Assembly: GCA_045627525.1 (NCBI GenBank)
Contig: JAZQNW010000011.1
Location: forward strand, 4,549-68,548
DNA: 64,000 bases
Reading direction: 5' to 3'
Source of the DNA: Bacilli bacterium
Lineage (GTDB): Bacteria; Bacillota_I; Bacilli_A; RF39; UBA660
Under the pieces are notes generated by a model that did not search any database, was not told where the DNA came from, and worked only from the letters and a program-made list of their open reading frames with translations. This document shows, piece after piece, positions 18,110-45,186 of the stretch. The position numbers and the translations under genes were made by a program. Each line of letters opens with the position of its first letter. The stretch's first letter is position 1.

Positions 18110-18152
18110 ATCTTGTAAAATGATTTTATTTATGATATATTTCTATATAAAG

Positions 18153-18360
18153 CAAGTGCGAAAGACGTAATATTAATTAATTTGTAGAGAGCTTGTGGAT
18201 GGTGAAAACAAGTATGAAATTAATATTAAGATCACTTTCAAGTTGTGATTTATGGATAAGATAAATACGGTAACGCGTTATAGTTATAAGTGTATAAGTT
18301 TTCTTATAAATTAAGGTGGTACCGCGAACTATTCGTCCTTATAGGCGAGTAGTTTTTTTT
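18153..18360 (+). promoter_or_regulatory. T-box riboswitch (Ile) with canonical terminator
   Basis: AGAGA bulge and GGTG loop, specifier ATC at 18231-18233, T-box AAGGTGGTACCGCG 18313-18326, terminator ACTATTCGTC/GGCGAGTAGT plus T-tract. Confidence 0.93.
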
Positions 18361-35003: not shown

Positions 35004-35386
35004 ATAGATTATTAGAATTACATAAAAATAGTTATGTTCCAATTTCTAACTATCCGGTTTCAGCTATAGTTGTAGCAAAAGATGGAAGAGAATTTCCAGG
35101 TGTAAATGTAGAAGATGCATCTACTAGAGCAGGTACTTGTGCTGAAAGAACAGCTATATTTTCAGCTTTAACAGCAGGTGTTAAAAAAGGTGAGTTTGAT
35201 TGTATCCATGTATTAACATCTTCAAGTGAGAGCATAGGAATGCCTTGTTTTGTATGTCGACAAATGATTTCAGAGTTATTTGATAAAGATTGCAAAATTA
35301 TTTGTTATAATACTAAAGGTGAAAGTATTACTCATACTGTTGAAGAGCTTTGTCCTTATCCTTTTGGAGAGGAAGATTTAAAATGA
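34997..35386 (+). CDS. cdd: Cytidine deaminase
   Basis: CAERTAI, PCFVCRQ zinc motifs. Confidence 0.94.
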   Translation: MLNRLLELHKNSYVPISNYPVSAIVVAKDGREFPGVNVEDASTRAGTCAERTAIFSALTAGVKKGEFDCIHVLTSSSESIGMPCFVCRQMISELFDKDCKIICYNTKGESITHTVEELCPYPFGEEDLK

Positions 35387-36273
35387 GATGCGGCTTTGTT
35401 AGTTTAGTTGGAAGACCAAATGTTGGAAAGAGCACTTTACTTAATAGTGTATTGGGAATGAAATTAGCTATTACTTCAGATGTTAGTGGTACTACAAGAA
35501 ATGTTATTCAGGGTATTTATAATGATGATTCTTCACAAATAGTATTTGTTGATACTCCAGGTATTCATAAGCCAACACATAAGTTAGGAAATTTAATGAA
35601 TAAGAAAGCTTATACATATACAGAAGGTGTTGATGTAATTTTATTTTTGATAGATATTTCTAAAGGATTTGGTAAAGGTGATGAATTTATTCTTAATAAA
35701 ATAAAAGATAGTGAAGTTCCCGTTTTTTTATTGCTAAATAAGATTGACCAAGTAAAAAATAAAGAATTATTATTAGAAAAAATAAATGAATTAAAAGATC
35801 TTTATAGTTTTTCTGAAATTATTCCAATTAGTGCAGCAAAAAAAGATAATATAAATGTTTTGATTGATTGTATAAAAAAATATATTCCTGAACAGGATGC
35901 TATATATTCTGAAGATGAATTAACTAATGTAACTACAAGATTTATAATGGCTGAGTTTGTAAGAGAAAAGATATTAGAACTTACTCATGATGAGATACCA
36001 CATACTGTTACTTGTTATGTGGAAAATTATGAAGAAGATGATGATAAAGTTCATATACAAGTATTGATTGTTGTTGATAGAGATAACTTAAAGAAAATTA
36101 TTATTGGAAAAAATGGCTCTATGTTAAAAGAAGTTGGAACTAGAGCAAGGATAGATATGGAGAAATTTTTAGGAAAAAAAGTATTTTTAGAGACTTATGT
36201 AAAAACATTAAAAAATTGGCGTGATCAAGAAAAATATTTCTTGGAATTAGGTTTAAAAGATGATGATGAATAA
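35383..36273 (+). CDS. era: GTPase Era
   Basis: GRPNVGKST, DTPG, NKID, KH domain GKNGSMLKEVG. Confidence 0.97.
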   Translation: MRCGFVSLVGRPNVGKSTLLNSVLGMKLAITSDVSGTTRNVIQGIYNDDSSQIVFVDTPGIHKPTHKLGNLMNKKAYTYTEGVDVILFLIDISKGFGKGDEFILNKIKDSEVPVFLLLNKIDQVKNKELLLEKINELKDLYSFSEIIPISAAKKDNINVLIDCIKKYIPEQDAIYSEDELTNVTTRFIMAEFVREKILELTHDEIPHTVTCYVENYEEDDDKVHIQVLIVVDRDNLKKIIIGKNGSMLKEVGTRARIDMEKFLGKKVFLETYVKTLKNWRDQEKYFLELGLKDDDE

Positions 36274-36399: not shown

Positions 36400-37140
36400 A
36401 TGAAAATAGAAAATTTTGAAGGATTAGTATTAAGTGAAACTAATTATAGTGAATCAAGTAAAATTTTAAATGTTTTTACTAAGGAATATGGTCTTATTGG
36501 AATTATGTCTAAAGGTTGTCGTGGTGTAAAAAGTAAACTACGAGGTGTTAGCAGGAAACTCATTTATGGTAAATTTCATGTCTATTATAAGGAAAATGGT
36601 TTATCTACTTTAATTAGTGTTGATTTGATTAATTCTTATTCCAATACGTTAATGGATTTAGAAAGAGTTAGTTATGCTTCTTTTTTGATTGATTTAGTTC
36701 TTCAAGTGGTAAGACAAAATGCTAATTCCGAGATTTTTGATTTAATAATTAGTACCTTAGATAAAATAGATACTGGTCTTAGTCCTATTGCGTTATCAAA
36801 TATTTTAGAATTAAAATTACTAGATTATTTAGGAGTTAAACCCTGTATAGATTGTTGCAGTAAATGTGGAAGCGATAAAGCAATTGTTACTTTATCTAGT
36901 GATAGTGGCGGATACGTTTGTAAGAATTGTTATCAAAATGAGGGACTAGTTAGTGATAAAACAATAAAAATGATTAGAATGTATTATTATGTTGATATAA
37001 AAAATATTACTAAATTAGATGTTTCTTCAGAGGTTACAAAGGAAATAAATATGTTTTTAGATGATTATTATGAAAGATATACTGGACTATATTTAAAAAG
37101 TAAAAATTTTATTAAGAAAATTCAAAAATTATCTTCATAA
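36400..37140 (+). CDS. recO: DNA repair protein RecO
   Basis: NYSESSKIL..FTKEYG, C4 zinc finger CSKC/CKNC. Confidence 0.94.
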   Translation: MKIENFEGLVLSETNYSESSKILNVFTKEYGLIGIMSKGCRGVKSKLRGVSRKLIYGKFHVYYKENGLSTLISVDLINSYSNTLMDLERVSYASFLIDLVLQVVRQNANSEIFDLIISTLDKIDTGLSPIALSNILELKLLDYLGVKPCIDCCSKCGSDKAIVTLSSDSGGYVCKNCYQNEGLVSDKTIKMIRMYYYVDIKNITKLDVSSEVTKEINMFLDDYYERYTGLYLKSKNFIKKIQKLSS

Positions 37141-37153
37141 TATTATTTATGAC

Positions 37154-37181
37154 TTGACATAAAAATAATTAAAAGTATAAT
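37154..37181 (+). promoter_or_regulatory. Sigma-A promoter of glyQS leader
   Basis: TTGACA(37154-37159)-16 nt-TATAAT(37176-37181). Confidence 0.7.
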
Positions 37182-37189
37182 AATACTTA

Positions 37190-37318
37190 TATGTGTGATG
37201 ACTGAGGCGGAAACTCACGAGCAGTATAAAACAAAGATGATTCTTCTAGAATAAATAAGGTGGAACCGCGCAATAATATTTCGTCCTTACATATTCTAGA
37301 ATTTTTTTATTATAAGGA
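37190..37318 (+). promoter_or_regulatory. Atypical short T-box riboswitch (Gly)
   Basis: T-box AAGGTGGAACCGCG 37257-37270 with TTCGTCCTT partner; mini stem TGAG-GCGGAAA-CTCA containing Gly codons; upstream of glyQS. Confidence 0.8.
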
Positions 37319-37326
37319 GTGATAAT

Positions 37327-38697
37327 ATGGAAAAAATGACAATGGAAAAGTTAGTTAATTATTGTAAACAATATGGTTTTATATTTCAAGGAAGTGAAAT
37401 ATATGGTGGATTAGCAAATACTTGGGATTATGGACCATTAGGATCAAGATTAAAAAATAATATTAAAGATTCATGGAGAAAAAGGTTTATTCAAGAAAGA
37501 CCAAATGCTTATGAAGTAGATGCTGCCATCCTTATGCATCCTAGAGTATGGGAAGCTAGTGGTCATGTTGGTAGTTTTTCAGATCCTCTTGCTGATTGTA
37601 AGTCATGTAAAACAAGACATCGTATTGATAATTTAATAAATGATTTTTCTAATTCATCAATTGGTGATGCAATGAGTAATGAAGAAAGATATAAATATTT
37701 AATTGATAATAAAGTACCATGCCCAAATTGTGGAAAAACAGATTTTACTGAAATTAGAGAGTTTAATCTTATGTTTGAAACTCAAAGAGGTGTAGTAAAA
37801 GATGCTAAAAGTACAATCTATTTAAGACCAGAAAATGCTCAAGGTGAATATGTTAATTTCTTAAATGTTCAAAGAAGCATGAGAGCAAAGTTACCATTTT
37901 CAATAGGGCAAATTGGTAAAGCTTTTAGAAATGAAATTACTCCAGGAAATTTTACTTTTAGAACAATTGAATTTGAACAAATGGAATATCAAACTTTCTG
38001 TAAGGAAGGATCTGATAGTGATTTATATGATTATTTTAAAGAGTATGCTAAAAAATATTTTATGGATTTAGGTATAAGCGAAGAAAAGCTAAGATATCAT
38101 AATCATGAAAAATTAGCTCATTATGCAAAAGAAGCTTGTGATATTGAATATAAATTTAATTTTGGATGGGGCGAAATAAATGGTACTCATAATCGTACAA
38201 ATTACGATTTAAGTCGTCACCAAGAATTTTCTGGAACTTCTCAAGAATATTTAGATCCAGAAACAAATGAAAAATTTATACCATATATTATTGAATCTAC
38301 CGTAGGTTGTGATAGAGCAGTATTAGCAGTTCTTGACAATAGTTATTGTGAAGAAGAATTAGAAGATGGTACAACTCGTGAAGTTATGAAATTTCATCCA
38401 GCAATTGCACCATATAAGGTAACTGTATTACCATTAGCTAAAAAATATCATAGTGAAAAAGCAATGGAAATATATAATATGTTAAGCAAATATTTTATGG
38501 CAAGTTATGATGAAACTGGAAGTATTGGTAAACGTTATAGAAGAAGTGATGCTGTAGGAACACCATGGTGTATAACAATCGATGATGAAACTATTAATAA
38601 TAATACAGTAACAATTAGAGATAGAGATACAATGGAACAAGTTGTATTGAAAGTAGACGAATTAGTATCATATATCGAAAGTAAAATCAATTTTTAG
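37327..38697 (+). CDS. glyQS: Glycine--tRNA ligase (alpha2 type)
   Basis: YGGLANTWDYGPLG, YLRPENAQG, FRNEITP, GINGTHNRT-like motif 3 region, anticodon-binding domain SIGKRYRR. Confidence 0.96.
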   Translation: MEKMTMEKLVNYCKQYGFIFQGSEIYGGLANTWDYGPLGSRLKNNIKDSWRKRFIQERPNAYEVDAAILMHPRVWEASGHVGSFSDPLADCKSCKTRHRIDNLINDFSNSSIGDAMSNEERYKYLIDNKVPCPNCGKTDFTEIREFNLMFETQRGVVKDAKSTIYLRPENAQGEYVNFLNVQRSMRAKLPFSIGQIGKAFRNEITPGNFTFRTIEFEQMEYQTFCKEGSDSDLYDYFKEYAKKYFMDLGISEEKLRYHNHEKLAHYAKEACDIEYKFNFGWGEINGTHNRTNYDLSRHQEFSGTSQEYLDPETNEKFIPYIIESTVGCDRAVLAVLDNSYCEEELEDGTTREVMKFHPAIAPYKVTVLPLAKKYHSEKAMEIYNMLSKYFMASYDETGSIGKRYRRSDAVGTPWCITIDDETINNNTVTIRDRDTMEQVVLKVDELVSYIESKINF

Positions 38698-38792: not shown

Positions 38793-39713
38793 ATGTTAGT
38801 TAATGGCATATCTTCAAAATGCAGTGGTTTTTTTATGAGTGATGAATTAAATCCCTCTATATTAAATAATAAAAGATATAAATCTATAGTTGAAAAAATA
38901 GAATCAATTATTACTGAACAATTTATTTCTTTAGATTTAACGGATATTAGTACTTTTTCTAATTTTGATGATATTTTTAGTAAAAAAATTAAAATAGATA
39001 TGGAAGAAGACGGTAATGGTTTTAAATTTGAATTTCAAAATAAGTCAAAAGAAGATGATTCATTAATTATAAATTATAAATCTATTAGAGTTAGACTTTT
39101 GAAAAATGGAGATATAGATTTTAAAGATTTACCAGATGATAGTTTAATGGTAACTGAAAAATCTGCTGATGCTAGTATTAGTGGCAATACTATTAAGTGT
39201 TCAATGCCAATAGTTGAAAAAACTATATTTGATAAAAATGGTAAACAATTAGATTTTGAAAAAAAGGTTTTATTTGATAAAACGGAAATATTAGATGATA
39301 CTTCATCTTCATATAGAAAATTGATAAGAATTTTAAGTGAAGAATTAGATAGAATTGATAATACAAAGGATGATGTTTGTGAACATATTTATCTTTATAG
39401 AAAAGATTCTGATACTAGTTGCGTAACATTTAATGGAGAAGATGGCAATATTTTAGAGAGAAGTTTTTCAATTAATCTAAATGATGCTGTTACTTCTAAG
39501 TATTTAGCTTCAGTTTGTTCTATCAGTGGTAGAAAGTTAGATTATAAAGATTTAACAAAGTTTTTAGTTAGTTTAGATGATGCACAAATTACTAGAGTTA
39601 TAAGTAATATGATAGATGAGAAATCAACATTTGCGTTTAATAGAGATCACAATGTACCATGTTATGGAACAAGAAATAGTTTTCAAAAGCAAAAAAATTC
39701 TAAAAATAACTAA
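38793..39713 (+). CDS. Hypothetical acidic protein
   Basis: 306 aa ORF with TGTTATAAT promoter and AAGGAGG RBS; no family recognised. Confidence 0.72.
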   Translation: MLVNGISSKCSGFFMSDELNPSILNNKRYKSIVEKIESIITEQFISLDLTDISTFSNFDDIFSKKIKIDMEEDGNGFKFEFQNKSKEDDSLIINYKSIRVRLLKNGDIDFKDLPDDSLMVTEKSADASISGNTIKCSMPIVEKTIFDKNGKQLDFEKKVLFDKTEILDDTSSSYRKLIRILSEELDRIDNTKDDVCEHIYLYRKDSDTSCVTFNGEDGNILERSFSINLNDAVTSKYLASVCSISGRKLDYKDLTKFLVSLDDAQITRVISNMIDEKSTFAFNRDHNVPCYGTRNSFQKQKNSKNN

Positions 39714-44933: not shown

Positions 44934-44964
44934 TATTTTTAATTTTTATGTTATAATACCGTTA

Positions 44965-45174
44965 TCGATGTTGATTAAGGAGTAGTAGTAATTGATGCTT
45001 CTAAAGAGAGCTTGTGGTTGGTGCAAACAAGTGAAGATAAATTATGAATTCGCCTTAGGAGTTCTTATTAATAGTAAGCGTAGCTCGCGTTAAGAGTTTT
45101 AAGTGTATAGTAATAACTATAAAATAAGGTGGTACCGCGAATATTCGTCCTTATATTTATAGTTATTTTTTTTT
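44965..45174 (+). promoter_or_regulatory. T-box riboswitch (Phe)
   Basis: AGAGAG/GGTG stem I motifs, specifier TTC 45049-45051, T-box AAGGTGGTACCGCG 45126-45139. Confidence 0.92.
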
Positions 45175-45186
45175 AAGGTGGTGACT

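Follow-up and report, generated by a model that had tools for sequence, protein, structure and literature searches.

A glycine T-box leader of small-genome gut Bacilli with an ultrashort Stem I and a putative terminator that encloses the antiterminator element

Introduction

The terminator of a textbook T-box takes up the 3′ strands of the antiterminator. Structural work has only recently assigned Stem III and its purine latch to the aminoacylation sensor. In the ON platforms of other riboswitches, for example those of adenine-responsive leaders, the 5′ strand of the terminator is held in a helix that the ligand stabilises.

The canonical glyQS T-box (Bacillus subtilis and Geobacillus kaustophilus; RF00230) lies upstream of glyQS, is specific for glycine and, as in other glycine T-boxes, has no Stem II. 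It combines a K-turn-like Stem I base, a latch of the form RRRxG-Stem III-AA and an A1/UGGA bulge/A2 element with a G·U sensor. Its U-tract terminator is energetically favoured over the antiterminator fold, and tRNA is required for the ON state. The purine motif 5′-RRRxG-Stem III-AA-3′ is part of the discriminator that senses aminoacylation, and the antiterminator binds tRNA poorly when Stem III is missing (PMC7583486). The NCCA/bulge duplex and A2 receive the purine string in their minor grooves, and aminoacylation may block the annealing of A1 and A2, the engagement of the purine string, or both (PMC7583486). An ultrashort Stem I with neither an elbow platform nor Stem II is described as unusual among transcriptional T-boxes (PMC7583486). 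The actinobacterial ileS T-boxes, which act on translation ('class II' of TBDB; PMC7583486, PMC7778990), have no distal platform, place the specifier in the terminal loop and conserve the discriminator core. They also carry a Stem II S-turn and a Stem IIA/B pseudoknot and sequester the Shine-Dalgarno (SD) sequence.

Here we describe a leader upstream of glyQS that shares all the listed features of the canonical glyQS T-box and is a T-box by its sensor, but departs from the canonical family in the Stem I platform and in the competing terminator. Its Stem I lacks the elbow platform and is reduced to the K-turn and a 4-bp helix, the terminal loop of which holds the specifier. Its terminator encloses A1 and A2 and consumes Stem III, whereas the canonical terminator reuses the 3′ strands of A1 and A2. 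The leader resembles the actinobacterial ileS T-boxes in the absence of a distal platform, the position of the specifier and the conserved discriminator core; unlike them, it has neither Stem II nor a conserved sequestrator, and it carries a conserved hairpin followed by a U tract. As in ON riboswitches, the ligand would lock a weak helix, here Stem III with the latch, that shares nucleotides with the terminator. In contrast to them, the ligand is a tRNA that would be sensed through a tertiary latch, and the main ligand-binding helices lie inside the terminator hairpin. No description of a terminator enclosing the antiterminator was found in PMC7583486, in TBDB (PMC7778990), in the survey of glycyl T-boxes (PMC11404447), in a comparative study (PMC2494555) or in searches of the full-text literature, which does not prove that an earlier account is lacking.

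Results

The glycine leader and its tRNA-sensing parts

The window (the whole stretch of 64,000 nucleotides analysed here) belongs to a genome of 1.15 Mb in 18 contigs, which is 94% complete and contains 33 tRNA genes and 13 T-boxes besides the Gly leader. The G+C content of the region examined is ~24-28%. The leader lies downstream of era and recO and is preceded by a sigma-70-type promoter (Table 1); the transcript probably starts near position 37188. It is followed by an open reading frame for a single-chain glycyl-tRNA synthetase (GlyRS) of the glyQS type, the product of which is 77-83% identical to the GlyRS of 80 gut Bacilli metagenome-assembled genomes (MAGs). The 80 GlyRS loci of these uncultured gut Bacilli yielded 63 non-identical leaders of the same type, located ahead of glyQS itself or of a short operon in which glyQS is the last gene. 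A second set of 37 further non-redundant leaders was taken from other genomes of the same family.

Table 1. Positions of the features of the Gly T-box locus in the window and of the T-boxes with bulge-capturing wiring
Feature	Position	Strand	Remarks
era	35350-36273		upstream of the Gly T-box leader
recO	36400-37140		between era and the leader; stop at 37140
Sigma-70-type promoter	37154-37181	+	TTGACA-16-TATAAT; 12/12 consensus positions matched; 3′ of the recO stop
Ultrashort Stem I	37194-37223	+	K-turn-like base GUGAUGA ... GAGC; 4-bp helix 37203-37206/37214-37217; 7-nt terminal loop GCGGAAA
Specifier codon GGA (Gly)	37209-37211	+	followed by the conserved purine A37212
5′ purine string RRRxG of the discriminator latch	37235-37239	+	AGAUG; alignment consensus AAAGnG before GAUUC
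Stem III	37240-37252	+	AUUCU 37240-37244 / loop UCU / AGAAU 37248-37252; -1.2 kcal/mol alone; proposed true anti-terminator element
AA 3′ of Stem III	37253-37254	+	3′ part of the purine latch; invariant columns A67 and A68; 63/63 leaders
Terminator base helix, 5′ strand	37244-37253	+	UUCUAGAAUA; shares nucleotides with the Stem III loop and 3′ half and includes the first latch A
Antiterminator-type element	37256-37289	+	present in both conformers; A1 37256-37260/37285-37289; bulge UGGAACC 37261-37267; A2 GCG 37268-37270 / CGU 37282-37284
Terminator base helix, 3′ strand	37292-37301	+	UAUUCUAGAA; exact complement of UUCUAGAAUA; duplex -9.5 kcal/mol
U7 tract	37302-37308	+	abuts the end of the base helix at 37301
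SD region of glyQS	37313-37319	+	UAAGGAG; matches UCCUUA 37284-37289 by complementarity, unconserved
glyQS-type single-chain glycyl-tRNA synthetase gene	37327-38697	+	ORF with start codon ATG at 37327; Pfam tRNA-synt_2b and HGTP_anticodon
Bulge-capturing wiring	C14:13382-13640		window's genome; also seen in L142, L162 and L166
Bulge-capturing wiring	C1:117259-117431	-	window's genome
Bulge-capturing wiring	C1:218455-218636	-	window's genome

The Rfam T-box model (RF00230) scores the leader at 33.9 bits (E 3.7e-6) against a gathering score of 93, and the matched part comprises Stem III and the T-box/antiterminator only. The leader is also missing from the genome-wide Rfam list at E <= 0.01. With a score under the Rfam threshold, it is overlooked by ordinary annotation. 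Stem I is 30 nt long; the Rfam alignment deletes model positions 15-101, and the distal platform that would receive the tRNA elbow (AG bulge and distal loop) is absent. RNAalifold and pair counts over the 63 leaders showed double-sided changes both in the Stem I base (GYGAUGA...GAGC, K-turn-like) and in the helix of 3-4 bp above it. Stem II is absent, the S-turn and the Stem IIA/B pseudoknot are lacking, and ~16 nt separate Stem I from Stem III.

The specifier loop reads UGGAA in most of the 63 leaders and UUGGCAA in seven, a change from GGA to GGC that alters the third codon position alone, and thus this site behaves like a specifier. The genome encodes tRNA-Gly(UCC) and tRNA-Gly(GCC), both with a UCCA end (U73). 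GGC was considered as the specifier of the window's leader and ruled out, as the aligned position is GGA in most relatives. Specifier loops of the forms YUUGGAAA and UUGGCAA (window 37207-37213; columns 31-40 of alignment A1), found in many leaders, show complementarity to 6-7 nt in the anticodon loops of tRNA-Gly(UCC) (CUUCCAA) and tRNA-Gly(GCC) (UUGCCAA). The loop of the window's own leader, GCGGAAA, can form just 4 such pairs. Judging from these sequences, an extended loop-loop contact may compensate for the absent Stem I platform.

The aminoacylation-sensing parts are well preserved. The Rfam alignment has high posterior probability over A1, the bulge and A2, and both A1 and A2 covary (RNAalifold and pair counts), with A-U replaced by G-C at one A1 pair in 25 sequences. 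The bulge UGGAACC occurs in 61/63 leaders, and its UGGA complements the UCCA of the tRNA-Gly genes. The wobble pair G37268·U37284 at the base of A2, the aminoacylation sensor, is G·U in 54/63 leaders. The mini Stem III noted in the initial annotation is present as described there. Among relatives Stem III takes the forms AUUCUC/GAGGAU, AUUUCUC/GAGAAAU and AUC/GAU. Its AUUC/GAAU is nearly invariant in the first 63 leaders, so that the covariation support for Stem III itself comes from a minority of sequences. As the elements that contact tRNA are all retained across the leaders, the element is identified as a T-box by its sensor.

A putative terminator that encloses the antiterminator element

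The 3′ side of the leader is not arranged as in a canonical T-box. The initial annotation had pointed out that the CGUCC strand has no downstream complement, and indeed none occurs between the T-box and the glyQS start codon. No complement of CGUCCUUA precedes the U tract, and a canonical terminator using the 3′ strands of A1 and A2 is absent from the leader. Likewise, no canonical terminator downstream of CGUCC was found in the window or in the relatives inspected. The long helix suggested in its place, in which UUCUAGAAUA pairs with UAUUCUAGAA and UAAGG with CCUUA ahead of a T7 run, was found at the positions originally given. The base helix encloses the intact A1, bulge and A2, and the resulting hairpin is the only one that abuts U7.

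In RNAfold, the leader adopts the long hairpin as its fold of lowest energy. The platform alone (37233-37308) has a folding energy of -17.0 kcal/mol (z = -2.97), and only 1/200 shuffled sequences folds as well; for the whole 145-nt leader the z score against shuffles is only -0.95. The terminator conformer has an energy of -20.4 kcal/mol (lowest-energy fold -23.8), compared with -9.4 for the conformer with Stem III, A1 and A2. Stem III and the terminator base helix are mutually exclusive because they share nucleotides, and A37253 of the latch is base-paired in the terminator form. A simple consensus scan for terminators calls no site at the hairpin preceding U7. The scan is silent owing to its G-C and loop rules: the base helix has 2 G-C pairs in 10, and the 'loop' is a structured element of 38 nt. 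The two TTCTAGAA copies were also considered as a DNA operator, a reading ruled out as relatives preserve complementarity rather than identity (e.g. CTCTAAAGAG / CTCTTTAGAG in L013).

A leader that scores far under the Rfam threshold, has neither a Stem I platform nor Stem II and lacks the competing terminator strand could be a degenerate T-box, the remnant of which would serve as a constitutive leaky attenuator or as a stabilising 5′ hairpin with no response to tRNA. However, retention of the UGGA bulge that fits U73, the G·U sensor, the purine latch and the exclusively glycine-coding specifier changes across leaders from many genera is not what a remnant would show. An unregulated terminator of -20 kcal/mol before an essential single-copy synthetase gene would also be costly. 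Degeneration is thus quite unlikely.

Conservation and covariation of the enclosing helix

Each leader was folded up to its U run, and an enclosing base helix of at least 7 bp was taken as the criterion. Such a helix is present in 60/63 leaders of the first set and 37/37 of the second, that is, in 97/100 non-redundant leaders, all from one family of small-genome gut Bacilli. The three exceptions among the 63 look like sequences cut short by the automatic call of the U tract. The enclosing helix has a median length of 15 bp, including pairs between purines and the U tract. In every leader it uses nucleotides of Stem III, with a median overlap of 9 nt. The pairing register varies: most leaders use the loop and 3′ half of Stem III (UUCUAGAAUA), and others use RRRxG and the 5′ half (e.g. 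AGAGAUUCU / AGAAUCUCU). Complementarity survives changes of sequence, as in CUCUAAAGAG / CUCUUUAGAG, GAUUCUAUUAG / CUAAUAGGAUC and GGGAUUCC / GGGGAAUCU.

RNAalifold on the MAFFT alignment returned the antiterminator form only. As the 3′ strand pairs in differing registers, the terminator form is missed by this method; therefore, per-sequence folds, a comparison of own and crossed duplexes, and pair counts on the named structure were used. In the 63-leader set, the 5′ and 3′ strands of the same leader pair with -14.9 kcal/mol, compared with -11.9 for strands swapped between leaders (permutation p < 1e-4) and -5.5 for shuffled 3′ strands. The second set of 37 leaders, in which Stem III is variable in sequence and length, gave -14.5 kcal/mol for own strands and -9.6 after swapping. 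In the MAFFT alignment, built without reference to any structure, 90.8% of the cells of the nested structure are paired, compared with 43-52% when the partner columns are slid by 1-3. Double-sided changes occur in this alignment at each of the five pairs closest to the U tract, and a U run (U5-8) lies 3′ of the helix in all aligned relatives. The initial annotation had called for a check of covariation within the clade; the energies of own against swapped strands and the double-sided changes uphold the enclosing helix.

That annotation had left two readings side by side, a switch based on the refolding of Stem III into a long terminator around the T-box bulge and translational control by sequestration of the SD sequence. 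The comparative data support the first, since the alternative helix is conserved, covaries and is followed by a U run; they do not support the second as a conserved mechanism. Under the second reading, the A1 3′ strand UCCUUA would pair with UAAGGA of the SD sequence (37313-37318) in the absence of tRNA and block ribosomes, as in the actinobacterial ileS T-boxes. The complementarity of 6 nt (-6.3 kcal/mol) is present as the annotation had it, and the ultrashort Stem I is like that of translational T-boxes (PMC7583486). However, the match arises because CCUU in the T-box and AGGAGG in the SD are each conserved independently of the other, and the two do not covary: A1 occurs as UAAGG, UAGGG, UAAAG and UAGAG (3′ strands CCCUA, CUUUA and CUCUA) with no matching change in the SD, a generic AGGAGG throughout. 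Spacing between U tract and SD varies among the leaders (8 to 51 nt), and in ~25 loci a gene other than glyQS comes first after the leader. A sequestrator would not need the conserved U5-8 run after the helix, and the enclosing hairpin, by far the more stable structure, does not occupy the SD. Only a very slim chance is left to translational control.

Two leaders, L057:1347-1482 and L061:1365-1500, no longer possess the Stem III loop and 3′ half (GAGAUUCU is directly followed by AAGUAGGG) and retain the enclosing helix GAGAUUCUA/UAGAAUCUC with the U tract. An alternative 5-bp hairpin, ACUUA...UAAGU, might replace Stem III in their sequences. These two leaders have no simple explanation under a model of competition between Stem III and the terminator.

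They bear on a further possibility, namely that the leader responds to tRNA at the level of transcription through a coupling other than Stem III. A tRNA on the bulge of the closed hairpin could distort or peel the AU-rich base helix, or the 5′ strand could be held by tRNA contacts or by another hairpin. The retention of the enclosing helix in L057 and L061 without the 3′ half of Stem III speaks for such a coupling, as the ACUUA...UAAGU hairpin could hold the 5′ strand in its loop, and the closed form could in principle bind tRNA with A1, bulge and A2 present in both states. On the other hand, 98/100 leaders have Stem III with flanking latch purines overlapping the base helix, and an antiterminator without Stem III binds tRNA poorly (PMC7583486). 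A coupling that bypasses Stem III is judged unlikely.

Distribution and other terminator wirings

A sample of 301 genomes from the same order, spanning 127 genera, was searched with a covariance model built from the Gly leader, and at least 150 of them gave full-length hits above 100 bits. The genomes with hits belong nearly all to one family, the genomes of which measure 0.6-1.6 Mb. The 65 genomes sampled from other families of the class gave a single weaker hit (L116), which has a long Stem I and a terminator overlapping A1. Within the family, L013, L021, L059 and L117 have a long Stem I together with the enclosing terminator, showing that the two peculiarities are separable.

The 14 T-boxes of the window's genome are wired in several ways. 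Seven have canonical terminators, including the Ile leader in the window (18147-18343). The enclosing type comprises the Gly leader, the Phe leader, the T-box at C1:264625 and probably that at C6:71280. In the Phe T-box (window 44962-45175; 127.7 bits, full-length Stem I), AUAACUAUAAAAUA of the Stem III 3′ half and linker pairs with UAUUUAUAGUUAU located 3′ of A1, and U9 follows. As this T-box has a full-length Stem I, the enclosing wiring is not tied to the ultrashort Stem I. Three further T-boxes show a third, bulge-capturing wiring, in which the A1 5′ strand and the T-box bulge are both base-paired to the sequence preceding the U tract (e.g. AAGGAUGGUACC with GGUAUCAUUCUU; Table 1).

Outside this genome, ~75 T-boxes from 20 other Bacilli genomes were typed by eye; the automatic topology classifier was noisy, and its non-canonical calls were re-read. 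Around 55-58 of them are canonical, 4 are of the enclosing type that invades Stem III, 3 have an extended A1 and 3 are bulge-capturing. The 4 enclosing T-boxes (L093, L167, L151 and L159) come from two reduced Bacilli genomes of 0.9 and 1.5 Mb, and none of this type occurs in the sampled genomes of at least 2 Mb. In the Phe leader, at C1:264625 and in these four T-boxes, as in the Gly leader, a sequence downstream of A1 forms base pairs with Stem III plus linker ahead of a U tract, and A1, bulge and A2 stay intact. They differ from the Gly leader in that Stem I has its full length, the Rfam threshold is reached and the specificity differs; the Gly leader unites the enclosing terminator with an ultrashort Stem I. 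In L082, L089 and L172, from other Bacilli families, A1 is lengthened by 3-4 pairs (AACU/AGUU) that run directly into the U tract, with no separate terminator hairpin.

Discussion

Taken on its sequence features, the ~115-nt leader is likely to be a functional glycine-specific T-box that controls glyQS by transcription attenuation, with the terminator coupled through Stem III. In the proposed switch, Stem III and A1/A2 would fold first. Docking of uncharged tRNA-Gly would then lock the purine latch and Stem III onto the NCCA/bulge duplex; locked in this way, Stem III would block invasion by the terminator 3′ strand, and RNA polymerase would pass the U tract. When the tRNA is charged or absent, the latch would remain unengaged, and the 3′ strand would zip down from A1 and displace Stem III. 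The unfolding of Stem III would bury the latch A's and part of the purine string, and the closed hairpin (-20 vs. -9 kcal/mol) would terminate transcription at the U7 tract. The tRNA would thus relieve termination by locking Stem III rather than by shielding A1 and A2. Since the 3′ strands of A1 and A2 are never released in this scheme, the decision must fall at Stem III and the purine latch; with A1 and A2 annealed in both states, only the engagement of the purine string could carry the charging signal. The ultrashort Stem I and the absence of a platform and of Stem II mean that fast co-transcriptional capture of the tRNA is not assured.

A broader proposal, quite possible but more tentative, is that such leaders form a third class of T-box expression platform that naturally separates the two coupling routes proposed for aminoacylation sensing. 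Within that proposal, the Gly version would be the smallest natural transcriptional T-box (~115 nt, with neither an elbow platform nor Stem II) and may make up for its size by the extended loop-loop contact. If the model holds, the leader offers a natural minimal system in which to ask whether engagement of the latch alone turns the charging state of a tRNA into a transcription decision, and its ~115 nt, without an elbow clamp or Stem II, are a convenient experimental size. Annotation by the Rfam threshold overlooks a T-box carried by most of the genomes sampled from a large gut-bacterial family. Among the genomes sampled, the non-canonical terminator wirings occur only in small ones (0.9-1.5 Mb), which is relevant to riboswitch surveys and to ideas for T-box-targeted antibacterials.

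The genes next to the leader vary among relatives. In the window, glyQS is immediately followed by an ORF of 306 aa (38793-39713) with no Pfam match at E <= 0.01. In many relatives (L002:967-1497, also L014, L029 and similar loci), the gene for a LOG-family protein of 176 aa (Pfam PF03641, 'possible lysine decarboxylase') separates the Gly T-box from glyQS; from this gene order, it would be co-regulated by the charging of tRNA-Gly. Loci of the L038 type have a 272-aa ORF in place of the LOG-family gene. In L039:1330-1500 and L060:1400-1500, an extra SD and a short ORF (~25-30 codons, hydrophobic in L039) lie between the Gly T-box terminator and glyQS, which has a second SD of its own; the additional SD and ORF may be a small peptide gene or a leftover duplication.
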